The notes beneath the pieces were generated by a model. It worked only from the letters and a program-made list of their open reading frames with translations, did not search any database and had not been told where the DNA came from. The translations under genes were made by a program, and so were the position numbers. This document shows positions 3,591 through 32,700 of a stretch of 64,000 nt of DNA, piece after piece (the first letter of the stretch is position 1; every line of letters starts with the position of its first letter). The DNA comes from a virus, in IMG/VR virus record IMGVR_UViG_3300035670_000078, positions 1 to 64,000 of that record; one strand, written 5' to 3'.

Positions 3591-4090
3591 GAGAGCGTCC
3601 TCGTCAGGACGCTGAAGAAGCATCGGCCCTCCTCAGTTTGATATCATCACCATCAGCCCCATAGGAGGTGGGAAAAGTAAGTGGGGGGTCGCAAGAGGTT
3701 GGTGGATACGCATCATGCCGCGAGTGTGCACTACACACGAGCGCGGGCTCGGCGTACGCGGGGACGCGCTCTCGCTTCGCGCGCGTCCCCGCCAACGAAA
3801 ATGCGACAGCGCTCCACACCTCCGTGCGGCTATCCATTTTCCTGCTCGCTGCGCTCCCAGAAAAATGGGCCGCACGGGGCGTTCCGCGCCATCGATTTTC
3901 GTTGCACCTCCCCCTTATGCGCTCGTGTCCTCATAGTGCACGCGGCAAATAGCTGCGTATCGACCCCAACCTCCAGCGACGGGGTCCCACTGAGCTGTTC
4001 CCATGGGGCTGACGGCGAGGAAGGTGGGATGAGATAGCAAACGGAGGGGGACTCGATGTTCTAGGTCAGCGTCCTGACGAGGAAGCTCTT
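3591..4090. repeat. large imperfect inverted repeat with self-complementary spacer
   Basis: arms ~3591-3746 and ~3919-4090 (GAGAGCGTCCTCGTCAGGACGCTGA / TCAGCGTCCTGACGAGGAAGCTCTT); internal stems in spacer. Confidence 0.85.
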
Positions 4091-4109
4091 TATTAAATAT
4101 TATAAAGGG

Positions 4110-4853
4110 TGATGATCGGATAGGATCAAGTGAAGAACAGACTGACTTACGCATTGAGCAAGAGGGTTTTGTCTGGAGCTAATTCCAGTTACCGGTCGAC
4201 GAAAAAGCGGAGATCGGGATATAGGGGAGGCTGAACGGTTTATTCGGATGAGAGAGTTGGGAAACTCTCGGGTTCTGGATTTATTCGTAGAGTAGGCTGA
4301 TGATCCCGTCGAGAGACGAAAAACCTCAAAGGGCTGTTGGACTGATTGCAAGTCTCGGTCACTTGGTATCGCACGGTAGGCGCAACATCCAGTTCTGGTG
4401 CGAAGGAACTGCCGCCTATGACGGGTTAAGAAGTGTGTTAGACTTCGAATGCCGTGGGTATCACTCTAGAGAATATTCTAGGGACTCGGGAAATTGAGTT
4501 CTCGAGTTGGACAAACAACAGAGAGTATGAGGATCGAAACCTAGTTCGAGATGACCAGGGGGTGTGGTAAGGTCCACCGTCTGGTCAGGGTAGGGACTGG
4601 GAGTGGGGTTTGGGTACCTCCTCGCACGCATGCAGCATCTCCTAAGGCTGCGAGCGCAGCGAGCACCCCAACATCCTGCACACTCCCCCTCCCCCTGCCC
4701 GACTTGGATCTCAGTTTACCGTTTACGGTAGACCCGGCTAATAAACAGGTGACCCTGGATAATAAGGTGGTCAACCGTGGCGTAAAACCCATGCACCGAT
4801 TATCCAGTGGCCCTGGCTTCCTCTGAAGCGAAACTGCCTCGACTGGGGCAGTA
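4110..4853 (+). ncRNA. candidate large structured non-coding RNA (~750 nt)
   Basis: no credible ORF; many stems with G-U pairs, GNRA loops and nested long-range pairings; boundaries approximate. Confidence 0.55.
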
Positions 4854-4887
4854 GGCGGGGATGGTCCCGCCCTGATGAGCCAGGAGG
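4819..4887 (+). ncRNA. type II hammerhead ribozyme
   Basis: GAAA 4830-33; stem III CTGCCTC/GGGGCAG; GTA cleavage triplet 4851-53; stem I GGCGGGG/TCCCGCC; CTGATGA 4872-78; stem II closed by G-C, C-G. Confidence 0.9.
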
Positions 4888-4892
4888 CGATA

Positions 4893-5105
4893 ATGAGAAT
4901 AACGATGCCGACGAAGTCCGATAAGTGCCCGGCCTGCGGGTCGGGGATGATTAATCGTACGCCCAGAGAGTGGGTGGGCCGGTCAGATATGATGGTCTGC
5001 CCGAAGTCCGAATCCGAAAACGAAGACGCGGGCCTCGAGGGTCTCGTGCTTCGAGAACGGGTCGGCGGAAAGGTGGTGCGCCAGGTGGTCTGGTGCATTG
5101 GATAG
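4893..5105 (+). CDS. small Zn-ribbon protein
   Basis: AGGAGG RBS; CPACG..M..RTPREW, paralogous to 8237-8443. Confidence 0.7.
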   Translation: MRITMPTKSDKCPACGSGMINRTPREWVGRSDMMVCPKSESENEDAGLEGLVLRERVGGKVVRQVVWCIG

Positions 5106-5544: not shown

Positions 5545-5751
5545 ATGTATCAAATTAATGTGAGAGGTCGTGCTTGGTGGTGGTGCGGGGGCCTGTCCCC
5601 CAGCGCCGCCGATGTAAAGGCGATGGAAGAGACCCACATGTGCCCCTCGTGCGGGGGCGGGTTCGTTCCGGGCTTCCTCGGCCCGGAGTGTGAAAACCTA
5701 AACGAAGGGCCGTTCGACGAGGACGGCGGGGGGGACGACGACTATGAATGA
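5545..5751 (+). CDS. hypothetical Zn-finger protein
   Basis: GAGGAGG RBS; CPSCGG; overlaps next start. Confidence 0.55.
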   Translation: MYQINVRGRAWWWCGGLSPSAADVKAMEETHMCPSCGGGFVPGFLGPECENLNEGPFDEDGGGDDDYE

Positions 5752-6007
5752 GCTGTATGATCTGCTACCGCTCAACGCCCGGATCGAGGGGGCGTGGGCG
5801 GTGGTTTCGCAACTGAAGGCGCAGGTGGAGGCCAAGGCCAAGGCGTCCATCGATCCGTGGGAGAAAGCCCATGCGATGATCGCGACCCATGAGCTGGCCG
5901 AGGCGATGCGCCGCCTGGATCAAGCGCGCCTGTCCGTGATCCAAGCGTTCGCCGAGACCTTCGACGATGGCGTCGATGCGCTGCTCGGCGGCTGCGACGA
6001 AGAATAA
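5744..6007 (+). CDS. hypothetical protein
   Basis: coupled ORF with typical codon usage. Confidence 0.65.
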   Translation: MNELYDLLPLNARIEGAWAVVSQLKAQVEAKAKASIDPWEKAHAMIATHELAEAMRRLDQARLSVIQAFAETFDDGVDALLGGCDEE

Positions 6008-6031
6008 TCCACAGTTAAGGAGGTAATCACT

Positions 6032-6361
6032 ATGCGTCTTGTTAATCTGACACCACATCTGATCCGTGTTCAACCCGTGCTCGACGGGGAAATCCTCGAG
6101 CTGCCCAGCGAGGGCGTGGCTCGGGTCACCATCACCGACGAAATAATCGGCGACGTCGATGGTATCCCGGTCGTCGCCGGCACCCCCGGTGAGGTCACGG
6201 GTATCCCCGACCCCATTGAGGGCGTCATCTTCATCGTGTCGGCCATCGTCCTTTCGGCGCTCAATGGGAGCCGTAAGGACGTCATGGCGCCCGACACCGG
6301 GCCGACGGCTATCCGAAAGGATGGCCAAGTCTGGGCCGTGACCCGTCTTCGGGCACGCTGA
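6032..6361 (+). CDS. conserved viral hypothetical protein (NLTPH family)
   Basis: AAGGAGGT RBS; NLTPH..P.P.EGVIFIVS..R.DV.APDTG..AIR..G motif pattern. Confidence 0.8.
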   Translation: MRLVNLTPHLIRVQPVLDGEILELPSEGVARVTITDEIIGDVDGIPVVAGTPGEVTGIPDPIEGVIFIVSAIVLSALNGSRKDVMAPDTGPTAIRKDGQVWAVTRLRAR

Positions 6362-6370
6362 CCCACACAA

Positions 6371-6432
6371 GGGCCGGGCATCGTCCCGGCTCGCCATCTC
6401 AGGGCACCATGCGTGGTGTTCTGACATGGCGA
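6371..6432 (+). ncRNA. two-hairpin intergenic motif, copy 1
   Basis: GC hairpin + CGCCATCTCAG-GGCACCA-TGCG-TGGTGTT-CTGACATGGCG. Confidence 0.75.
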
Positions 6433-6481
6433 TGTTCGCCAATTGTGCCGGCAATATCCGGCGCTTGAAGGAGATAATCAG

Positions 6482-7057
6482 ATGCAGCACATCGAAACCG
6501 TTGTTCACAATGCCATCCGCAACATCCGCCTGGCCGTGGCCGGGCATTCAGAATGGCCGACGGGCCGGGTCGAGGGTCTGGCCAAGGAGCTGACCTATGA
6601 CAACCATTCCCCCGAGCAGGTCGTGGATATCAGGCTGGCCGTTGCGGCGGCCGTGCACGAGTTCGGCGGGTACGACAATGTGCCCGACGAGGTGTGGCGT
6701 GTGGTCGCCGGTATCGGCTGTGAAATCCACGCAGCCGAGTTCTGCGGCGATCCCGATGTGATGGGCGGCACCGCCCAGGGTGCGTTCTTCATCGTCCCGT
6801 TCCATGGTATATCCAAAGGGCACCCACTCATCAACGCCATCGAGGCGTTCGGGGGCATGACCCTCTATCATGAGTTCGAGGACACCATCATGGAAGAAGG
6901 CCCAAACAAAACCTGGGTCGATACCGTGGTGTTCGATTTAGTCGAGTTCATCGGCCGCAAGGTCGATGGCCGCCTCGTGATCGACGTCATCAATCACCGG
7001 TGGGACGAGACCACCAACAAGTTCCACCACCTGCTGCTCCTGGGAGGTGCCAAGTGA
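6482..7057 (+). CDS. hypothetical protein
   Basis: AAGGAG RBS. Confidence 0.75.
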   Translation: MQHIETVVHNAIRNIRLAVAGHSEWPTGRVEGLAKELTYDNHSPEQVVDIRLAVAAAVHEFGGYDNVPDEVWRVVAGIGCEIHAAEFCGDPDVMGGTAQGAFFIVPFHGISKGHPLINAIEAFGGMTLYHEFEDTIMEEGPNKTWVDTVVFDLVEFIGRKVDGRLVIDVINHRWDETTNKFHHLLLLGGAK

Positions 7058-7620
7058 AGAAGCTCGTTCTCATCGTCAGCAGCGACGATCGAAGCTGCGA
7101 CACCAAGATGGTCAGGGCAAAGCTCGATGCCCTGGCCGGTCGGTTCAACATCATCGCCATGTACAGCACGGGCGGCAACGAGCGGGCGTTCGACGCCACC
7201 GCCGCAGCTCGTGCCTGGGCGCGTCAGAACGGGGTTCGGGATATTCCCGTTTACCCCGACTGGGATCGTAACGGCAAGCGGGCTGGCTACATGCGTAACA
7301 GCAAGCTCGTCACGCTGGCGACGTACGAGAAGGACAAGGCAGGGGCGTCAGTCGCGGCGCTACTCTGGGCGGGGGCTGAGCCCATCGTCCATCTCTACAA
7401 GCAGTGCCTCGCGGCGCGCATCGCTGTAGAGAAAATCGGTAAATGGCCATCGCTCCCGGTGGGCGGGAGCGATTGGTCGAAAAAGCGACTCGGCGTTTCC
7501 GAGGTTGAAGAGGAGGAACTAGACAATGAAGATCTCGATCTGGACGATCAAACAATTTCGGGGGCTCCGGCCTGGCTCAACCCTACCCCGCGAGTTCCTG
7601 GTCGAGGCGGGCCTCGATGA
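7054..7620 (+). CDS. SLOG-superfamily (YspA/DUF2493-like) protein
   Basis: GGAGG RBS, GTG start; AAARAWA..G..YPDWDRNGKRAGYMRN motif. Confidence 0.75.
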   Translation: MKKLVLIVSSDDRSCDTKMVRAKLDALAGRFNIIAMYSTGGNERAFDATAAARAWARQNGVRDIPVYPDWDRNGKRAGYMRNSKLVTLATYEKDKAGASVAALLWAGAEPIVHLYKQCLAARIAVEKIGKWPSLPVGGSDWSKKRLGVSEVEEEELDNEDLDLDDQTISGAPAWLNPTPRVPGRGGPR

Positions 7621-7705
7621 GGACGCCGACTGGGAGGTCGTCGAAATAAACGGAAACACGTTGGTCGTGAAGATGGTCGATTATTTCGATCATCTCGCTG
7701 ACTAA
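7526..7705 (+). CDS. 59-aa hypothetical protein absent from the ORF track
   Basis: AGGAGG RBS; MKISIWTIKQ...YFDHLAD*; stop directly precedes motif copy 2. Confidence 0.6.
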   Translation: MKISIWTIKQFRGLRPGSTLPREFLVEAGLDEDADWEVVEINGNTLVVKMVDYFDHLAD

Positions 7706-7712
7706 CCTGGAT

Positions 7713-7775
7713 GCCCCGGTGAAAGGCCGGGGCCGCCATCTCAGGGTTTCGTGCGCGATACTCTGACATGGCGGC
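7713..7775 (+). ncRNA. two-hairpin intergenic motif, copy 2
   Basis: GCCCCGGT/GCCGGGGC hairpin + CGCCATCTCAG-GGTTTCG-TGCG-CGATACT-CTGACATGGCG. Confidence 0.75.
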
Positions 7776-7850
7776 GTGTCCGCCTAACAGCAGCTTCAAG
7801 GTACACCACGGTGGTGTGCACGTCGCTGCTTTGCTCTGGAGAGTTTCAAA

Positions 7851-8225
7851 ATGTCTATCAATAACTCGGTTCGTCTCATCGGCAATCTTGGCAACGACAT
7901 CAAACTCCGCGAGACCGCCAATGGCGTCGTCGGCACGGTCAATATCGCCACCAAGGAGCGGTGGCACGACAAGGAGACCGGCCTCCTGACCACCCACGTC
8001 GAGTGGCACCGCCTCGTTTTCTGGAACGGCCTCGCAGAAAACACTGCCAAGTACATGGGCAAGGGTAGCCGAGTGGCGGTCGTCGGCCGTCTTCGCACCC
8101 GCAAGTGGGACAAGGACGAAATCACCTACACGGTCACCGAAATCCACGTCGATGAGGTCGAGTTCCTCAGCGCCAAGCCGACGGGACCGGCCAACAAGCT
8201 CATCATCGAAGTCGGTGGCGAATAA
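7851..8225 (+). CDS. ssb: single-stranded DNA-binding protein (bacterial type, no acidic tail)
   Basis: N.V.LIGNLG.D..TEWHR-like (VEWHRLVFW)..KGSRVAVVGRLRTRKW..Y.VTEI. Confidence 0.93.
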   Translation: MSINNSVRLIGNLGNDIKLRETANGVVGTVNIATKERWHDKETGLLTTHVEWHRLVFWNGLAENTAKYMGKGSRVAVVGRLRTRKWDKDEITYTVTEIHVDEVEFLSAKPTGPANKLIIEVGGE

Positions 8226-8236
8226 GGAGGTATCGC

Positions 8237-8443
8237 ATGACAAGCAAGTGTCCCCTGTGCGGGGGCCAGATGGTCGACCGCACACCGAAAGAGTGGCGAG
8301 GACTGTCCCCAGTCATCAGCTGCATCAATGCTCCCCCCGAGGACATTGACAAGCTGTGGGACACGCTCCTCGCAGCCACCGTCAAAAAGTACAAAAAGCA
8401 GCTGATCGGAAAGGTCAGCCTGTGTGGGGGCGTGGAGAAATGA
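8237..8443 (+). CDS. small Zn-ribbon protein
   Basis: AAGGAGGT RBS; CPLCGGQMVDRTPKEW. Confidence 0.75.
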   Translation: MTSKCPLCGGQMVDRTPKEWRGLSPVISCINAPPEDIDKLWDTLLAATVKKYKKQLIGKVSLCGGVEK

Positions 8444-8613
8444 CACGCCTCCGAAATATCCGTAAGGCCAACCGCAAGCTCAGCGCCTTGGAGATCAAGG
8501 CGCGTGAGTTCGATGGTCTCTACATCTCCCCCACCGAAGAGAGGGTCGGGCTCGTGCTCGCCCCTCTCCTCATCCTTGCAACCCTAATCGGCGGCTTCTG
8601 GCTGCTTCCCTAA
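8440..8613 (+). CDS. small membrane protein
   Basis: ATGA coupling; C-terminal TM helix. Confidence 0.6.
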   Translation: MTRLRNIRKANRKLSALEIKAREFDGLYISPTEERVGLVLAPLLILATLIGGFWLLP

Positions 8614-8624
8614 GGAGAATCAGA

Positions 8625-9218
8625 ATGGACACTCACGAATACGTCACCAACATGGTCAACGAAATGAACGATCCCGAACTCCGCACGGCGGCCATCGCCA
8701 TGCTGGAGGGTCAGGAAATTCTCGACCCGATTTTCCTCGGCAACTATCTCGCCAACGTCGGGCTCTGCGCCGAGCACGAGGGGGCCAGCGAAATAGTCTG
8801 CCTGGCAAAGGCGCACCCCGAGGTCATGGCCAAACTTGAAAGCCAGCTCGACTTTTCCCAAAGCACGATCCAGCCGGATTGTGACGAGGAAGATTTCGAA
8901 ACCGAAGCGGTCATGAGGTTTACGGACCTCGTCGACCTGACCGGGCTCGAGCCATTCCTCAGCGAGGAAAAGCTAAAAGAGCTGACGGAAATGGCCAACC
9001 GAAATATTCGGTTGGTCCAGGCCAACTCCAAGAAATTCGAGTGCGTGTGGGAAAGGGCCACCGATTTCCGGGATATGTTCCTGGGAGACAGGTTCGGCCT
9101 CCCTCGATACTTCATCAACGAGATCACCCGCGCCACTGACTGGGTGCTCAGGGGCGTCGATCGTCCCGCCATGGGCGATCAGAAGATCCGGCAGCTCTGC
9201 TGGAACCGAGCCGTCTGA
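8625..9218 (+). CDS. hypothetical protein
   Basis: AAGGAG RBS. Confidence 0.75.
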   Translation: MDTHEYVTNMVNEMNDPELRTAAIAMLEGQEILDPIFLGNYLANVGLCAEHEGASEIVCLAKAHPEVMAKLESQLDFSQSTIQPDCDEEDFETEAVMRFTDLVDLTGLEPFLSEEKLKELTEMANRNIRLVQANSKKFECVWERATDFRDMFLGDRFGLPRYFINEITRATDWVLRGVDRPAMGDQKIRQLCWNRAV

Positions 9219-9232
9219 GATAATCCAGCCCT

Positions 9233-9298
9233 GCCCGTGGGGATAATCACGGGCTCGCCATCTCAGCGTGTCATGCGTGACGCACTGACATGACGAGT
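9233..9298 (+). ncRNA. two-hairpin intergenic motif, copy 3
   Basis: GCCCGTGG/TCACGGGC hairpin + CGCCATCTCAG-CGTGTCA-TGCG-TGACGCA-CTGACATGACG. Confidence 0.75.
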
Positions 9299-9396
9299 CG
9301 CTCGTCAGCCCGCCGTTCGGTGGGTCAACGTCATCGCCGCCTTCAGCAAGTCGCTGACAGGTGTCGTGACCTTTTTGTCCGGGAGTGATCAGAGCT

Positions 9397-10215
9397 ATGC
9401 AATACTTCAAGCTACTCATGAAGGCGATCAAGGGGGACCTGACCCCTGATCACGTGGCGAAACAGCTCGAGATGAGCATGTCCGATTTCCACGAGGCGGT
9501 GCGTCGTCACTGCATCGCCAAGAAAATGCAGGTGCCCGGCTGGGTGCCTGCCGAGGTCAAGGCCAAGCCGGTCGAGACCAAGGCCAAGCCCGCGACTGCG
9601 GGTCTCATCAATGTGCGCGGACAGAACGTCATCGCCGGTACGCCCCGCGCCTACATGGCCGGCCGTATCCAGGTGGATTTCGACGAGGTCAAGGCGGCTG
9701 CTCGGGCCGAGGTCGCGCGGTTGCGTGACCAGAAGGCCAAGGCTGGTCAGGTCCAAAAGGCCGAAGCCTACCTTGCAGCCCTCAACGAGAGCGACCGGTT
9801 GGCCGCGCTCAAGGCTGCAGAGTTCGAGCAGAAGAAGGCTGACGCGCTGCGTGCTCGTCAGCAGTACGAACTGAAGAAGGCCGCGACTGTGGCCATCTGC
9901 AAGGCGATCAGGCTGGCTGGCCTGAGCCTTCAGCGCCGTGAGATCGAGCGGGAAGAGCGCATGGCTCGTGCTCGTCACACGGATAGGGTCCAGGCCAAGT
10001 GGCCTGAGAATCTCAAGAAGTTGGTCAACCAGTCTGAGCAGGAGACGTTCAAGCGTCTTGTTCAAGCTGTTGTGCGCCAGATGCTGTCGACTGAGGACAA
10101 CCGTCCGTCGATCGTTCCTCGTCTGACCGAGGCTTCGGGTCAGAACAGCGAGCTGGCTAACCAGCTCATCAACTTCCTGTCCTCGCCCGAGGGCAAGAAG
10201 CTCATCAACAAGTAA
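9397..10215 (+). CDS. basic coiled-coil protein
   Basis: Ala/Lys/Glu-rich helical ORF, strong codon bias. Confidence 0.8.
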   Translation: MQYFKLLMKAIKGDLTPDHVAKQLEMSMSDFHEAVRRHCIAKKMQVPGWVPAEVKAKPVETKAKPATAGLINVRGQNVIAGTPRAYMAGRIQVDFDEVKAAARAEVARLRDQKAKAGQVQKAEAYLAALNESDRLAALKAAEFEQKKADALRARQQYELKKAATVAICKAIRLAGLSLQRREIEREERMARARHTDRVQAKWPENLKKLVNQSEQETFKRLVQAVVRQMLSTEDNRPSIVPRLTEASGQNSELANQLINFLSSPEGKKLINK

Positions 10216-10227
10216 GGAGTCACCACA

Positions 10228-10422
10228 ATGCACCAGATCATGTTGAACGCACTCACCGAGTACATGGAACTCGGTGGCACCATCCGTCCCGAGACGACTG
10301 TCCGGGAAATCCTGGCCTTCGTAAAGCGGGCCAAAGCTGACCGTGAGGTCATGGACCTCCTCAGCGAGGTGAAGCAGATGACCGGGCGCTACAGCCGTCC
10401 GGTGCAGGGAGGTGCCAAGTAA
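10228..10422 (+). CDS. hypothetical protein
   Basis: AAGGAG RBS. Confidence 0.7.
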   Translation: MHQIMLNALTEYMELGGTIRPETTVREILAFVKRAKADREVMDLLSEVKQMTGRYSRPVQGGAK

Positions 10423-11714
10423 TGGCTCACTTCGACCTCACCGTGTCCCCCAGCTACGTAGAAAACTGGGGCGTCTGGGAAGCGCTGCGAGAAATCCTGC
10501 AGAACGCTCTCGACGAACAGGACAACAATCACCCGATGTCCCTCAACTGGACGCCGGGGCGTGGCGGCACGCTCGTCATCCGTAATGACGGCTCAGTCAT
10601 CGAGCGCAAGCACCTCATCCTCGGCGAGAGCGGCAAGCGTGACGATGACCGTATGCGCGGCAAGTTCGGAGAGGGCTTCAAGCTCGCCCTGCTCGTGCTT
10701 GCGCGTCTCGGTGTTGACGTTCGCCTCCGTACTGGTGGCGAGACGTGGCACCCAGAGATCGTCGAGTCCGAGCAGTACGGGACCAAGCTGCTCCGTATCC
10801 GCACCACAAAGAGGATATTCGAGCGCTCGGTTGAGTACTGCATTTCTCCCGTCGAGAAAGAGTCCTTCGAGTTGCTCAAGCAGCGCATTCTTCCGCTGCG
10901 CAGCGACTTCGAGAAGGTCGAGACGGGCGGCGGCGATCTCCTGCTCGGCACCGAGCTGAAGGGCAGCGTCTTCCTGAAGGGCATCTTCGTCTCGAAGGTG
11001 CCAAACGCGAAGTACGGCTACAACTTCAAGGAGTTGGAGCTTGACCGAGATCGCAAGATGGCTGACGTATGGTCCCTCGAGAGCCAGATGCGCCTCATCT
11101 TCAGCGAGGCCGTCCGATCCGGCAAGATGGGCGGCACCGAACTGATGTCTTTGGCGGATGACTCATCATCTGCCGAGGGTCGCGCCATGACTTATGGCCT
11201 GCCCTATGGCACCGAGGTCGTTGTCAAAGAGGCATTCGAGGCCAAGCACGGTCCCGATGCTGTTGCCGTCACCTCGATCACCGAAGCTGCCGAGGCGAGC
11301 AAGCTCGGCCTCAAGGCTGTCGTTGTCAGCAGCGGTCTTCACCGTGCGCTGAAGAACGACAAGGTCGACGAGGCCCGCAAGTCCATCGGCAAGTCCGCAA
11401 GCCGCAAGTATCAGTGGCATGAGCTTAGCACTTCAGATCAAGAAATGCTGACCCGCGCCATCGAGCTTGTCGGTGAGGACCTGACCGTCGACATGCACGT
11501 CGTCGACTTCAACGACGAGAACGTGCTCGGCCGCTACAGCAGCAAAGAGTCCAAGTTCGAGCTGGCCCTCAAGGTCATCAACATGGGTCTCGGCGAGGTC
11601 ATCCACACCATCTGCCATGAGCTGGCTCACGCCAAGTCCATGGAGCACGATGTTGTGCATGGTGCTGAGACTGGCCGCCTCATGGGTCGAGTCATCGACC
11701 GTCTGACCAAGTAA
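10422..11714 (+). CDS. GHKL-type ATPase with C-terminal HExxH domain
   Basis: ALREILQNALD, NDGS, GKFGEGFKLA (Bergerat fold); HELAH near C-terminus. Confidence 0.85.
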   Translation: MAHFDLTVSPSYVENWGVWEALREILQNALDEQDNNHPMSLNWTPGRGGTLVIRNDGSVIERKHLILGESGKRDDDRMRGKFGEGFKLALLVLARLGVDVRLRTGGETWHPEIVESEQYGTKLLRIRTTKRIFERSVEYCISPVEKESFELLKQRILPLRSDFEKVETGGGDLLLGTELKGSVFLKGIFVSKVPNAKYGYNFKELELDRDRKMADVWSLESQMRLIFSEAVRSGKMGGTELMSLADDSSSAEGRAMTYGLPYGTEVVVKEAFEAKHGPDAVAVTSITEAAEASKLGLKAVVVSSGLHRALKNDKVDEARKSIGKSASRKYQWHELSTSDQEMLTRAIELVGEDLTVDMHVVDFNDENVLGRYSSKESKFELALKVINMGLGEVIHTICHELAHAKSMEHDVVHGAETGRLMGRVIDRLTK

Positions 11715-11726
11715 GGAGTTCTAATC

Positions 11727-11939
11727 ATGCGCAAGTACGCAGAAGATAACATCAAAGTCGAGGAGAAGATGTTCGACACAGACACCGACAAAGCACTGTC
11801 CGCTCAGGCTCGCATTATCCGCGACCTGTCAAGCGAGCTATCTGAGTTGCGCAAGCAGCTTCGTCGCTACCGCAACTGGAACAAAGACCGAGCCAAGTTC
11901 CTGACTGACGCAGTGTCAGATCAGGGGTGGGGGGCGTGA
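11727..11939 (+). CDS. hypothetical protein
   Basis: AAGGAG RBS. Confidence 0.65.
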   Translation: MRKYAEDNIKVEEKMFDTDTDKALSAQARIIRDLSSELSELRKQLRRYRNWNKDRAKFLTDAVSDQGWGA

Positions 11940-12037
11940 CTTCGCGCGCAGCGCGAAGTTCATCCTGAAAACTCGTGGCCGTTAGGCCACGCACCGAGCT
12001 GGGGCGGGGATTCCTCAGCACAAGGAGAGATCAGAGT

Positions 12038-13453
12038 ATGCGTAGATTCCTAGAAATTGACGACACGCCAGTTGCACCGGCGCAGAAAATCCAGTGGTCA
12101 AACCTGACCACCGGCACCGCTGACGTGCTGGAAATGGATGACACCCCGGCCGTGTCTGCGGCCCCTGTCATCGACCTCGCTGCCGAGCGCCTTGCTCGTG
12201 TCACCGAGGACCGTGACGCTGCAGCCAAGTCCGGCTTCGCGATTGCGAAGACCGTGTACGAGCTGGGCACGCTGGTCAACGAGACCGGTGTCGAGAACCT
12301 GACCAAGTCTCGTCAGCAGTACGACGAGCTGCCATCTGTGGCTGACGGGCTGTCCTCGCTGGTTGGCGAGATCAAGTCCGAGCTTCGGCGCGATCGTGTT
12401 GTGCCGATCAACAGCCTCCTCTACACCAACGACGGTCGTCTTGGTGCCAAGGCTGTCAACACAGCAAACGCTGCTACGATGACCGATGCCGGTTATCTCC
12501 AGCTCGCGTCGCAGCTGGATATTCCGGCCACCGCTGCCAAGTTCATTCGGGCCAACCAGCCACTGTCCGCTGGCGCTGCGTTGATCAATCAGCGCATCGG
12601 CGACATCGCTCCCGATGAGCAGGTCATGGTTCGTGCGCGCAATCGTCGTGACGGCACGGGGCGCAACGTGTTTGCGGTACTGTCTCCCCGGTACACGCCC
12701 ATCGACCTCTGTGACATCGCCGAGGAGTTGCTGCGTGTCGAGGCGTTCCGTGACGCCAAGATCGACATCAACTACGACTGGGCGACCACACAGGCTGTGC
12801 TCGATGTCACGTTCCATACGGACATCGACGCGGGCAACGCTGCGTGCGGTGAGTATTTCAAAGCAGGCGTGCGGTTCAAGACGGCTGACAACGGCGGTTG
12901 CTCGCTCAGCGCGTCTTCGTACCTGGTCCGCAACCTGTGCCTCAACTTCATCATCCTTGATGAAGCTGAGATCAAGCTCGACCGCATCATCCACAAGGGT
13001 AGCAAGCAGAGCCGTCTCGACCGTCTCGCCAATGCTGCCAGCGCGGGCAGCAAGTCGATCGAGCACTTCGCGTCCAAGTGGACGGCAGCCAGCCGACTCA
13101 TCATCGACGATCCGCGTGAGCTTGACGCTCGTGTCAAGAAGAACGAGGACGTCAAGACGTGGGCTGACTGCGATACGCTTGAGCGTGTTGCCGGTCTCGT
13201 GCATGGCTACAGCAAAGCGGGTCACCTGCCGACGCTCACCCAGCATGATGTCAGCAACATCGCTGTGGCTTACCTCAAGGACGAGATCACTCACACTGAG
13301 AAGATCTCGCTCGCCGGTGTCGTCAACAGCATCACGCGCTATGCCCATGAGGGCATGGACCGCTGGTCTGCTGACGCACTCGAGCGTGCTGCCGGTGGTC
13401 TCACCTGGCACCAGCCGCAGCCGGTGTTCCAGTACGTGTCCGTGACCCGATGA
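12038..13453 (+). CDS. DUF932-like protein
   Basis: AVLSPRYTPID, VRNLCLN..I.HKG, VVNSITRYAH, LERAAG motifs. Confidence 0.65.
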   Translation: MRRFLEIDDTPVAPAQKIQWSNLTTGTADVLEMDDTPAVSAAPVIDLAAERLARVTEDRDAAAKSGFAIAKTVYELGTLVNETGVENLTKSRQQYDELPSVADGLSSLVGEIKSELRRDRVVPINSLLYTNDGRLGAKAVNTANAATMTDAGYLQLASQLDIPATAAKFIRANQPLSAGAALINQRIGDIAPDEQVMVRARNRRDGTGRNVFAVLSPRYTPIDLCDIAEELLRVEAFRDAKIDINYDWATTQAVLDVTFHTDIDAGNAACGEYFKAGVRFKTADNGGCSLSASSYLVRNLCLNFIILDEAEIKLDRIIHKGSKQSRLDRLANAASAGSKSIEHFASKWTAASRLIIDDPRELDARVKKNEDVKTWADCDTLERVAGLVHGYSKAGHLPTLTQHDVSNIAVAYLKDEITHTEKISLAGVVNSITRYAHEGMDRWSADALERAAGGLTWHQPQPVFQYVSVTR

Positions 13454-29705: not shown

Positions 29706-32700
29706 TCATGGTGTCACCCATTGACGTCTATGGCACCGCTCGGCACGCGCTCACCCTCACGCATTGGAAATGGTTGCCGGGGATGGTGACAACGGGCGGG
29801 ATCGTCGTGTCTGTGAAGCCTGAGGTCATCACGATATACGATCGTGGTCTCCTTCGGCTCCTTGGCGAGACCGAGCTTCCCGACCTGCACAACCCTGCGA
29901 CTGAAGGTCATCTCCTCCAGCTTGTGCGTGATGCGTGGGGCACAGACGACGCCTGCATCTACAGGGTCTTCGGTGACCGCTGGGAGGTCGACGGCATCGA
30001 CTTCGCTGGGGTCTTCTATTACCGCTGGGAAGCCCTCGTGGCTGCATTGGAGGCCGCGCCGTGAAGGTCAATATCATACACGACGACATCCTCATCTATC
30101 CGCAGACCTCTGAGTCCGGCCGTATCGAGATCGGCTACGAGGTGCGCACTGGGATGCAGGTCGGCACTACACCGATTGTGTGCCGCATCCTGGCCCCTCT
30201 CAACTACCCCGACTGCTGGTTCTACGTTCCTGGTCGCAGCCTTTTCAAGATCCTGGCCGAGATCAAGGACGGGTTCATCCCCGAGTGGATGAGCCTCGCT
30301 TGCTATGAGCAAGGATGGCGGGAACTGGTCGATGCTGGCTATCAGCTTAGCCTGTTCAAGAACGAGCATGACGTGGTGGCGCGCGACTTGAGAGACGCTA
30401 AGCAGCTCAACCAAGAGCTTGAGGCGAAGGTCGCTGAGCTTGAGGCGAAGATCAAAGAAATGGAAGCACAGCCGCCTTGGAAGCCTGAGCCAAGCTTCTG
30501 GATCGGGAAGCTGAAGCAGGAGACCGCGCCGTGAAAGAAAACAGAGCCGTGGCGAAAGTTCGCCGTATTATTGCAAAGCGTTATTTCGGCAGTGAGGCGT
30601 TCTCCGACGTGCCAGTCTTTAAAGACTGGGGCTGCGTTGTCGACGCCGAGAAGCTCGTTGTCATCAAACACGGTACGTGGAGAGATCAAACGCCCGGATG
30701 TCAGGCAGCTCTCCTCAAGGACGGTCGTGTTGTGCTCATCCTTGGCGGTCAGGTCATGGATCCGAGGACGGGCATCGGGATGGGCGAGACCACGCTCGAG
30801 ATGGTGGCGATCGCTTTGCGCTGGCTGGATTTCATCACCGACGACGAGCTGAGGAAATACCGAAGCTGGCTGAGCGAAGAGCGGTTCAAAAAGGATAAAG
30901 ACTCCAAGAGGAAGTCCTTCTTGGAGCAGGCCAGACTGCTTGGCTACCGCGTCGTATTTGAAGGTGAAGAATGAACTCAAGTGTAAGAGAACTCGACCAC
31001 GCCCAGTGGGCAATCGCCCGCGTAGTGCAGGTGATGCAGAAGCTCAACGTGCCTGCGGAGATGAAGGTCTACACGGAACTGACGGCGCTGCTGTGCAAGG
31101 CAGCCTCGCTGGCCGTGAACCGAATCGACTTGGCTGAGGCAGGCATCGACGACTTCCCCGGCTTCTTGGCCCGGTGGGAGGAGAAGGTTGCTCCTCTGCT
31201 GAAGCAGATCAAGGAGCGGTCATGATCGAGAGGCGCCTACCGGATGGAACGATCACTACCGACCAAGCGCGCTACGTCGAAGAGTGGTTCAACCTTGCCG
31301 ATGAGGTGGCCTCGCTATTCCCTGGCTATCATGTCAACGGCGTCGACCCGAACATAAGCCTATGGAAAGGGCTATCGACTTTGAGCCTGACCTTGGAGCA
31401 GGCCAAGCTGCTGCTCGCGGAAGTGAAGCGGAGGGAGCTGTGCCAACAGATAAACAAGTACTCGGTGCTCGCATCAGAGCCGCCGAAGAAGCTTACGTAA
31501 AGAAGCATCGTAAGCCTTACAAGGGAGGCGGCTGGATTATCCCCTCTAGGCAAGAAGTGCACGGTCACCTGAGCGCCATGTTTGATATCCCTGTAAGAGA
31601 CATAGGGTTTTTCCTTACGTACAGTAGAAACTGCACCCACACATGGGCGCAAGGAGCATGTGATGCCTGCCCAGATTAATGTCGGGGACGAGGTTATTGT
31701 TGACTGTGGGAACACCGTAAAAAGAGAGAAGGTGGTCAAGGTAGGCAGAAAGTACCTGACCGTCTCTCACGGTGAGTCCTCTATCCACGATGAGTTCTCT
31801 ATCGAGACGGGCAAAGAGAAAGGCCACGTCAGGGGCTTTCCAAAGTATCTCTACACGTTGGAGCAATGGCACAGGCGCCAGGCCTTCATCGAACTAGCGA
31901 AGTCTCTGAGCCACCTGAAGCATCAGGTGGACAAGTGGAACATTTACGCCTGCGAGTACCTGACCCTCGAGTGGCTGGCCGATGCCAAGGCCAAGATTGA
32001 TGAAATCACCGAGGTCATCGGTGGCAGGGCTATCAAGCCAACAGAAGGAAAGTGAGCCATGACGAAAGAAGAGATCGCTAACACCGCAATCAAGTATGTC
32101 GAACTGTGTACGCTAGCCGTGCAGGCTCAGCATGAGTACCGGCCTAGCCCATCAGCAAAGCGGAACTCGGAGTTGGCCCTCGATTATCACGAGGCCATGA
32201 CTGAGATGGCGCGGGCCGAGCTTCAGCTTCATGCGCAGGTCTGGGCGTACAAGGAAGAGCAGGCCAAACAGAAAATACGTGACGCCGAGGAGTGGAAGCC
32301 GTGAATAGAAAAGCTAGTGAAAACCTTATTCAATTGGCAAGTACCAAGTGCAAATTTGTTGGCGCTTTCGTCGGCGAGCCCTTTGCCCGCGAGGTCGTCT
32401 GGACCGGCGAGCGCTACGAGACCTTCGACCCCGCAATCCACACCGACAAGCGCCCGATCCTCCGCGTGATGCTCAACTTTTTCGTACCAGCCGAAAGCGC
32501 CATGAAGGTCATCGAGGGCGGCACCGTTTGGTTCAAGGACGTCCTCAAGGTCCGCGACAAGTACGGCCTCGACAAGTGGCTGTTCGAGATCGATTATCAA
32601 CGAGAAGTCGGCGATGAGAGGGCGATCTGCAGCATCTGGCCCGAGAAAAAGATCGACGACGCGATGCGCGCCCGTATACGCACCATGCCAATTTTTGATT

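Follow-up and report, generated by a model that had tools for sequence, protein, structure and literature searches.

Three copies of a two-hairpin element were identified in the early operon of this phage, and the element most likely represents a new, putative member of an already known class of signals for mRNA cutting and capping. The copies lie on the + strand of the window, the whole stretch of 64,000 nucleotides that was analysed, and their anatomy, number, positions and compensatory changes were read directly from it. Among the readings considered, a signal for host RNase III-type processing and 3' capping of the early mRNA is the most likely, because the elements are built like the RNase III sites of the T7 early message; we hold this reading tentatively. 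In each copy a GC-rich hairpin (hairpin 1) adjoins a second hairpin with a conserved base (hairpin 2).

6371..6391, + strand: copy 1, hairpin 1; GC stem of 7-8 bp with a 6-nt loop, from the fold
6392..6431, + strand: copy 1, hairpin 2; lower stem of 6 bp, covariance model score 67.8 bits
7713..7733, + strand: copy 2, hairpin 1; GC stem of 6-7 bp with two possible registers, from the fold
7734..7773, + strand: copy 2, hairpin 2; conserved base, mismatch, box and loop, 65.6 bits
9233..9254, + strand: copy 3, hairpin 1; GC stem of 8 bp with a 6-nt loop, from the fold
9256..9295, + strand: copy 3, hairpin 2; conserved box, mismatch and loop, 65.7 bits

The motif CGCCATCTCAG-N7-TGCG-N7-CTGACATG had three exact matches on the + strand (6392-6428, 7734-7770 and 9256-9292) and none in 100 dinucleotide shuffles, which bears out the claim of the earlier note that a two-hairpin motif is repeated three times. 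The count stayed at three when 3 mismatches were tolerated, and the whole 101,255-bp virus record contained the same three copies only. A repeat search returned the three elements as the top family, with a length of 58 nt and spacings of 1342 and 1522 nt. All three copies have the orientation of the genes and, as previously proposed, each stands just after a stop codon, hairpin 1 beginning 7-14 nt past it. In copy 1, hairpin 1 lies 9 nt past a TGA stop (6359-6361) and 0 nt from hairpin 2; in copy 2 it lies 7 nt past a TAA stop (7703-7705) and again 0 nt from hairpin 2; in copy 3 it lies 14 nt past a TGA stop (9216-9218), and U9255 alone precedes hairpin 2. The spacing between the two hairpins was thus 0-1 nt in all three copies.

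Each copy folded as two adjacent hairpins, with z scores of -4.2, -4.4 and -2.2 relative to shuffles and a stability of -34 to -47 kcal/mol for the hairpin pair. Hairpin 1 was GC-rich and differed among copies in both sequence and pairing register, and no bulges were seen in its folds. In hairpin 2, 26 positions were identical in all three copies, distributed over the base, mismatch, box and loop. The C.C mismatch (6398/6425 in copy 1), the UGCG loop (6410-6413 in copy 1), the UCAG/CUGA box and the lower stem were invariant, save for a G to A change at 9293 that places one C.A in the lower stem of copy 3; the lower stem of copy 2 could be extended to 8 bp (7732-7775). The four box pairs and the seven apical pairs separate the C.C mismatch from the UGCG loop by 11 pairs in every copy. 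The identity of the mismatch and loop in all three copies had been claimed beforehand and was found here, as was the claim that the 7-bp stem varies and stays mostly paired: the apex differed in sequence between copies and was paired at 7/7 positions in copy 1 (including two G.U), 6/7 in copy 2 (one U.U and one G.U) and 6/7 in copy 3 (one C.A and one U.G). By our own arithmetic, with a pairing probability of 6/16, the joint chance of this apical pairing is about 2e-7.

In the named structure 94% of cells were paired, compared to 24-43% when the 3' partner was slid, and four pairs had changed on both sides between copies. These compensatory changes support the conclusion that the fold is maintained by selection on a folded strand. 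The covariation support is thin, because three copies only were compared and the covariation score was equalled in 15 of 500 shuffles. The earlier note had argued from G-U pairs for selection at the RNA level. Of that argument, the part concerning selection on a folded strand stood, and the part assigning it to the + strand was weak, because the summed minimum free energy was -122.0 kcal/mol on both strands; by our own count, wobble pairs numbered six on the + strand and two on the - strand.

The copies occupy the three largest gaps (120, 145 and 178 nt) in the first 7 kb of the early + strand operon, whose gene models have GC3 values of 0.7-0.8. Each gap contains a further hairpin downstream of the element, and a hammerhead-like RNA stands at the head of the same operon.

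4826..4885, + strand: hammerhead-like RNA, type II; RF02276, 35.2 bits (cut-off 37), E = 0.0005
6445..6464, + strand: gap 1, third hairpin (7 bp, lacking a U-run) placed after the element and before the SD/ATG at 6482, from the fold
7789..7838, + strand: gap 2, terminator-like branched hairpin with a U-rich run after it, the SSB gene starting downstream at 7851, from the fold
9330..9379, + strand: gap 3, terminator-like long imperfect hairpin with five U after it, the ATG at 9397 lying downstream, from the fold

The earlier note supposed that the element acts together with the hammerhead, which is conjecture: the hammerhead-like RNA indicates only a further, probable processing point on this transcript. 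A terminator scan placed a terminator-like site at 7809-7828 in gap 2 and listed neither hairpin 1 nor hairpin 2 of any copy; no U-run followed either hairpin in the three copies. The elements are not ordinary intrinsic terminators, because they lack the U-tract that is present in the canonical terminators of this phage at other places (2137-2169 and 2240-2266). The sole sigma-70-like site upstream was at 4074-4103, and the copies lie 2.3, 3.6 and 5.1 kb beyond it. A promoter scan found no promoter-like site in or after the three gaps, and on our own reading no -10 partner lies 16-18 nt beyond the CTGACA of the 3' arm. Two coding explanations were rejected: read-through of the stop codon, since the frame of the motif differs in each copy, and a small ORF starting at the ATG of the motif, which has neither a ribosome-binding site nor a shared frame.

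The T7 early region provides the closest comparison for the favoured reading. We folded and aligned the five early intergenic gaps of T7, which we take to be the classical RNase III sites R0.3, R0.5, R1, R1.1 and R1.3 (Dunn and Studier 1983); the feature tables of two T7 GenBank records list no RNase III sites. The T7 gaps had a conserved base and a 4-bp box, AAGG/CCTT, with an internal loop beneath it, and in the folds the variable apex measured 9-13 bp under a 3-5-nt loop. In both phages several dispersed hairpins occupy gaps of an early operon that the host polymerase reads or, here, would read, a conserved base and 4-bp box lie beneath a variable, co-varying apex, and the helix is interrupted about 10-11 bp under the loop; the gap between T7 genes 0.7 and 1 carries a UGCG loop too. 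The analogy with T7 RNase III sites drawn in the earlier note was therefore strengthened by the same conserved-base, variable-apex design in the folds, together with the 11-bp spacing and the three of four box pairs that fit. The elements differ from those of T7 in that they share no sequence similarity with them, have a single C.C mismatch in place of an asymmetric internal loop, keep the loop invariant, adjoin an upstream GC hairpin that T7 lacks, and carry C-G at box position 3; cleavage here is predicted.

The rules for RNase III were taken from work on E. coli (PMC1540722, PMC3867540). The E. coli enzyme requires that no fewer than 11 bp separate the target site from the tetraloop or the end of the helix (PMC1540722), and all three copies have exactly this minimum for the E. 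coli enzyme. [quoted passage not shown] Read from the top, the box in the elements is G-C, A-U, C-G and U-A, so that positions 1, 2 and 4 fit the E. coli rules and position 3 does not; these rules are those of the E. coli enzyme and may not be those of the host's. In an alternative box with the C.C mismatch as position 4, like the U.C in natural R1.1 (discussed in PMC1540722), position 2 would be C-G, an E. coli antideterminant. The two loop-proximal pairs also differ from those preferred by E. coli RNase III. Hairpin 2 forms a helix of 18 positions (6 pairs, the mismatch and 11 pairs) compared to about two turns (20-22 bp) in the E. coli rule, and a helix of more than 22 bp is reached only with hairpin 1 (7-8 bp) stacked coaxially, a stacking that is assumed. 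Because loop sequence is immaterial to the E. coli enzyme (PMC1540722), the RNase III reading leaves the invariant UGCG loop unaccounted for. Mismatches or internal loops at an RNase III target site result in single-strand cuts, which give rise to protective 3' hairpins. The products of RNase III carry 5'-P ends and a 2-nt 3' overhang.

The enzyme, its cuts and their effect we infer as follows. The three elements would be cis-acting signals in an early polycistronic mRNA made by host RNA polymerase, and would be recognised by a double-strand-specific endonuclease, most likely host RNase III. Hairpin 2 would provide the 11-bp upper helix under the tetraloop, the four invariant pairs beside the C.C mismatch would act as the 'proximal box', and the mismatch would mark the target site and may restrict cutting to one strand. 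Hairpin 1, stacked coaxially on the 6-bp lower stem, would supply the second helical turn and, after cleavage, would stay as a GC-rich 3' cap that shields the upstream message. Cuts are predicted beside the mismatch in the 5' arm and 2-3 nt past CUGA in the 3' arm (after 6426/6427, 7768/7769 and 9290/9291). As happens in the early region of T7, the operon would thereby be split into segments of about 1.3-1.5 kb, each with a stability of its own. Use of a host enzyme would be consistent with the lack of a match to a phage RNA polymerase, sigma factor or RNase III in the virus record, which is ~68% complete.

If the RNase III reading is right, the early message of a large uncultured subsurface/freshwater phage, one not related to T7, is shaped in the T7 manner, with host RNase III acting at sequence-conserved hairpins in combination with a hammerhead ribozyme that heads the same operon. 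Taken alone, this would be a modest addition. The clean design, with its 11-bp helix, 4-bp box, single mismatch and adjoining cap hairpin, would make the elements a convenient substrate for studying the rules of RNase III outside E. coli.

A possible though rather unlikely alternative is that the elements control elongation, with hairpin 2 binding either a factor from phage or host or, like put, RNA polymerase directly, such that transcription passes or stops at the terminator-like hairpins that follow. The HK022 putL and putR sites are likewise two near-abutting stem-loops, of about 65-70 nt, with copies similar in sequence (PMC9378689), and the elements here, 62-66 nt long, also comprise two stems, separated by 0-1 nt. 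The invariant loop and mismatch lie one A-form turn (11 bp) apart on the same face, which suits contact with a protein or polymerase; several small Zn-ribbon paralogues without a known function are among the products of the early operon, and gaps 2 and 3 carry a hairpin and U-run downstream of the element, whereas the third hairpin of gap 1 has no U-run. The put sites, two per genome and one per early operon, stand just past early promoters and reach at least 10 kb (more than 10 kb in HK022), and their stem I has conserved bulges and a triple helix (PMC9378689). In contrast, the three copies here lie mid-operon, 1.3-1.5 kb apart, and neither a conserved sequence nor a bulge or triple-helix feature is seen in their stem I, and the put analogy made in the earlier note was accordingly poorly supported. 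Furthermore, no element overlaps the hairpins downstream of it, which makes a switch by alternative pairing impossible, and the analysis identified no factor resembling N, Q or LoaP.

It is improbable that the elements are passive punctuation, that is, stable post-stop hairpins that block 3' exonucleases or insulate translation, in the manner of REP elements in operons of bacteria, and that undergo no specific cleavage. Their position directly past stop codons, their very stable folds and the generic-stabiliser properties of hairpin 1 would all suit such a role. A stabiliser needs no sequence conservation, yet the identical positions of hairpin 2 surround an apex that is free to vary, and stability alone hardly accounts for a C.C mismatch that destabilises the stem and is nonetheless kept in every copy. 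REP/BIME sequences are also imperfect palindromes right past stops that are able to cap mRNA 3' ends, but their copies number in the hundreds, face either way and are accompanied by a RAYT transposase, compared to three copies in one orientation here. A REP/RAYT element was rejected, as the record gave no match to a Y1 transposase.

Quite improbable, on our assessment, is a docking site for a dedicated factor, such as a Zn-ribbon early protein, that would read the UGCG loop and the C.C mismatch and set the fate of each segment. Such a factor would act by read-through of the terminator-like hairpins that follow or by segment-specific decay. If true, this reading would describe a new phage RNA-protein control module.

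We consider it very unlikely that the motif acts at the DNA level, as a hairpin or cruciform for recombination, replication priming or an unusual promoter analogous to attC, IS200/REP or N4 sites. Such a site would be compatible with the equal folding energy of the two strands, with the near-palindromic arms and with the whole-gene indels by which relatives differ here, one junction of which adjoins hairpin 1 of copy 1. The indel in relative X6 that removes copy 2 joins 7042 to 8226 at a GGAGGT ribosome-site microhomology and not at the motif, and the 101-kb record (~68% complete) gave no match to a tyrosine recombinase, a Y1 transposase or a T7/N4-type polymerase. The core sites of attC, RYYYAAC/GTTRRRY, were absent. 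N4 promoters have 5-7-bp stems and 3-nt loops, stems far shorter than the 17 bp found here. The uniform orientation with transcription and the post-stop position fit a role in RNA better. An integron attC-like cassette site was rejected, since there was no PF00589 match in the record (~68% complete) and the end of the X6 deletion is not at the motif.

Two further element classes were compared. PeSLs (promoter-early stem-loops) are composite motifs that recur between genes across the variable early regions of large phages, with gene indels between relatives (PMC2839356, PMC4122927), features also seen here. They differ in that T4-like PeSLs join a terminator stem-loop to a sigma-70 early promoter, whereas no promoter-like hexamers follow the elements and the indel junctions seen here do not use the motif. 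A TIGR guide-RNA array (features from PMC12045711) was rejected, as the units are 1.3-1.5 kb apart with genes between them and the variable 7-mers pair with each other; the virus record had no match to a Nop domain.

The covariance-model and Rfam comparison proposed in the earlier note returned no Rfam family for the three sites: no Rfam 15 model reached its gathering score anywhere in the window, and nothing overlapped the sites at E up to 10. Exact-motif scans of IMG/VR, JGI metagenomes and GTDB genomes, with the inner pairing checked, gave chance hits only. A Sphingopyxis palindrome with shared arms was rejected, as it belongs to a divergent promoter region and hits were about as numerous as chance would give, and one hairpin-like match was rejected as a palindrome within an Ala-rich repetitive coding region. 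The covariance model found nothing in the rIIA-like loci of distant relatives (1.5 Mb), and a scan of distant relatives for hairpin families with a conserved base and variable apex (at least three copies) returned this phage only.

No close relative was found among cultured phages, and the proteins of 6482-7054 and 8625-9215 had no relatives in IMG/VR or JGI contigs. A 191-aa protein had one homologue, with 68% identity, and the rIIA-like neighbour matched 80 distant loci at no more than 35% identity. None of the sequencing runs listed with this DNA was an RNA run. The loci aligned in relatives from two other studies (sequencing runs X5 and X6). In gap 1, sites 6444, 6453 and 6466, which are among the differences listed for both X5 and X6, lie beside the stem of the third hairpin or in its loop, and none of them is within the stem.

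The window covers the leftmost 64 kb of an IMG/VR record of 101,255 bp whose completeness is estimated at 68%. An operon of small genes begins on the + strand at about 4893, directly 3' of a type II hammerhead-like RNA, and carries three copies of a two-hairpin element, a GC hairpin (hairpin 1) abutting a hairpin with a conserved base and a variable 7-bp apex (hairpin 2):

4826-4885, type II hammerhead-like RNA, 35.2 bits (cut-off 37)
6371-6431, + strand, element copy 1, in intergenic gap 1
7713-7773, + strand, element copy 2, in intergenic gap 2
9233-9295, + strand, element copy 3, in intergenic gap 3

The pattern CGCCATCTCAG-N7-TGCG-N7-CTGACATG had three + strand matches, beginning at 6392, 7734 and 9256, and none in 100 shuffles. 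Permitting three mismatches gave no further matches, and the count stayed at three in the whole 101,255-bp record. These results bore out the earlier note, which had described three copies just after stop codons. A covariance model built on the 45-nt hairpin gave the copies 65.6-67.8 bits; the runner-up in the genome, at 23.6 bits, was an unrelated perfect palindrome (1856-1900). The copies occupy the three largest gaps (120, 145 and 178 nt) in the first 7 kb of the operon, where gene models have a GC3 of 0.7-0.8. Hairpin 1, whose sequences are unrelated between gaps, starts 9, 7 and 14 nt past the stop codon in copies 1, 2 and 3, and the conserved hairpin 2 begins 0-1 nt later. The only sigma-70-like site found upstream of the operon (4074-4103; CTGACG, 18 nt, TATTAT) is the likely early promoter, and is directly followed by a 750-nt non-coding leader ending at the hammerhead.

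The proposed structure paired 94% of cells, compared with 24-43% when partner columns were slid. The apex, described previously as variable yet mostly paired, was indeed paired at 7/7, 6/7 and 6/7 positions in the three copies; by our own arithmetic, with a pairing probability of 6/16, such pairing would arise in three random 7-mer pairs with a chance of about 2e-7. Four of the seven apex pairs were altered on both sides, and the covariation score was reached by 15 of 500 shuffles. The C.C mismatch and UGCG loop were invariant as reported, and together with the lower stem and UCAG/CUGA box make up 26 positions identical in all copies; at the ATGGCG end the sole departure among copies is at 9293. 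So sharp a boundary between variable and invariant parts is not expected from uniform drift after duplication, which indicates, from comparison of the copies, that both the fold and particular bases of hairpin 2 are under constraint. The summed minimum free energy was identical on either strand (-122.0 kcal/mol), which weakens the G-U argument made earlier for an RNA on the + strand (by our count, 6 wobble pairs on the + strand and 2 on the - strand). A better case for the same conclusion is that all copies run in the direction of the genes and sit at a fixed place after stop codons.

Contigs from sequencing runs of two other studies (X5 and X6) align across copies 1 and 3 at 80-95% identity, and X5 also across copy 2, so, judging from these alignments, the element loci are present in related phages. 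Among the differences listed, 6444, 6453 and 6466 differ in both X5 and X6, and these sites fall in the loop or beside the stem of a third hairpin in gap 1. The X6 relative lacks two gene blocks (one within 5729-6381, the other at 7043-8225). The first holds the genes at 5744-6361 and has its junction just 5' of hairpin 1 of copy 1; the second holds, besides motif copy 2, the SSB gene, a SLOG/YspA-like gene and a 59-aa gene, and its junction falls in a shared ribosome-binding site, GGAGGT. Searches for the exact motif in IMG/VR, JGI metagenomes and GTDB genomes returned chance matches only, neighbouring proteins had no relatives in DNA collections, and 80 loci (1.5 Mb) of distant phages with an rIIA-like neighbour held no such family by model or generic scan. 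A Sphingopyxis palindrome (locus L153, 3368-3403; also L144, L145 and L132) shares the 9-nt arms and 18-nt spacing of the motif, is kept in three genomes and sits in a divergent promoter region, flanked by a secreted-protein gene and by what, judged by eye, resembles an lptF-type permease gene. Since pattern matches occur at chance number, it is probably unrelated to the phage element.

The leading reading, quite possible if short of probable, is that the elements are RNase III-type signals acting with the host enzyme, as in T7. Five early intergenic gaps of T7, which we take to be the classical RNase III sites R0.3-R1.3 (Dunn and Studier 1983), were folded and aligned. Each holds a hairpin in which the base and a 4-bp box (AAGG/CCTT) are conserved, an internal loop lies below the box, and the apex, of 9-13 bp with a 3-5-nt loop, varies. 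The phage element has this same design of conserved base, 4-bp box and variable apex, and the UGCG loop also occurs in one of the folded T7 sites. Work on R1.1 found that the shortest substrate reactive with E. coli RNase III is an 11-bp helix, from cut to tetraloop; that the 4-bp proximal box has the optimum GC, AU/UA, AU, AU/UA, with G-C blocking binding at position 2 and cutting at position 4; and that loop sequence is without importance (PMC1540722). The R1.1 work also showed that internal loops or mismatches confine cuts to one strand, which yields protective 3' hairpins.

Hairpin 2 has exactly 11 pairs from mismatch to loop. Its invariant box reads, from the top, G-C, A-U, C-G, U-A, in agreement with the E. 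coli rules at positions 1, 2 and 4 but not at 3; if C.C is counted as position 4, position 2 becomes C-G, which is inhibitory by E. coli rules that may not be the host's. The continuous helix of hairpin 2 covers 18 positions only. Hairpin 1, 0-1 nt away in every copy, would stack on it to supply a second turn and, after a cut, would remain to cap the upstream message at its 3' end. Processing by RNase III would thus explain why hairpin 1, otherwise puzzling, abuts hairpin 2, and would also cover the mismatch, the 11-bp spacing and the 4-bp box. The T7 analogy of the earlier note therefore stands in its 11-bp spacing, three of four box pairs (with the C.C left out of the box) and shared design, and leaves box position 3 and the invariant UGCG loop unexplained. 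A search of the record for a phage-encoded RNA polymerase, sigma factor or RNase III was negative, a result that is soft because the record is incomplete (~68%).

Elongation control is an unlikely alternative. The size and two abutting stems recall HK022 put, the second analogy drawn earlier, and hairpin plus U-run structures lie 3' of the element in gaps 2 and 3. However, put lies just after promoters, is present twice, exerts its effect across 10 kb or more and has a stem I that is both structured and conserved (PMC9378689), and the element fails to match it in position, copy number, range and stem I features. Slightly less likely still is a passive stabiliser or insulator, which suits hairpin 1 but leaves the sequence constraint and retained mismatch of hairpin 2 unaccounted for. 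A DNA-level site, although permitted by equal folding energies of the strands, is without enzyme or junction evidence and is improbable.

Named classes of element were also considered. Rfam, which the earlier note had proposed searching, gave no family match even at E up to 10. An ordinary terminator was rejected, as no U-run follows either hairpin; canonical terminators are present elsewhere in the phage (2137-2169 and 2240-2266). Promoter hexamers are lacking downstream of the element, so it is not a PeSL-type cassette (PMC4122927). A TIGR array (PMC12045711) was rejected because the units are dispersed, the variable parts pair mutually and no Nop domain was found in the record. The element is also unlikely to be an integron- or REP-like DNA site, since no tyrosine recombinase or Y1 transposase was found in the record (68% complete), and the X6 deletion that removed copy 2 joins 7042 to 8226 outside the motif.

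Several other features were observed. The perfect palindrome at 1856-1900 (41 nt, with TCAG-N7...N7-CTGA; 23.6 bits on one strand and 21.7 on the other) lies in a hairpin-rich left end (900-2450) that also includes several near-identical CCCCGACCC...GGGTCGGGG hairpins. An exact reverse complement to the 11-nt arm on the motif's 5' side (CTGAGATGGCG) occurs at 32201-32211, where a + strand ORF begins (ATGACTGAGATGGCG...); chance would give about 0.05 such 11-mers in 2 x 101 kb, and the sequence could conceivably pair in trans with the hairpin arm. Small Zn-ribbon early proteins, candidate nucleic-acid binders, are encoded at 4893-5103, 5545-5745 and 8237-8440; of these, the first is a paralogue of the last (39% identity over 44 aa, E = 2e-11), and both contain CPxCGxxMxxRTPxEW. 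ORFs 7054-7620 (SLOG/YspA-like) and 7526-7705 overlap by 95 nt (7526-7620) in different frames, probably through a mis-set start or end or as a programmed overlap. An rIIA-like histidine-kinase-type ATPase (10422-11711; phrog_6077, E = 2e-65) has a C-terminal HExxH...H that is invariant in 8 homologues and a weak SprT-like Pfam match, and may be fused to a zincin-type domain. Two strong hairpins of different sequence lie in the gap behind gene 11727-11939 (11940-12038): a 9-bp stem closed by a 3-nt loop comes first and a 7-bp stem closed by a 4-nt loop second. They have no common motif and no U-run.
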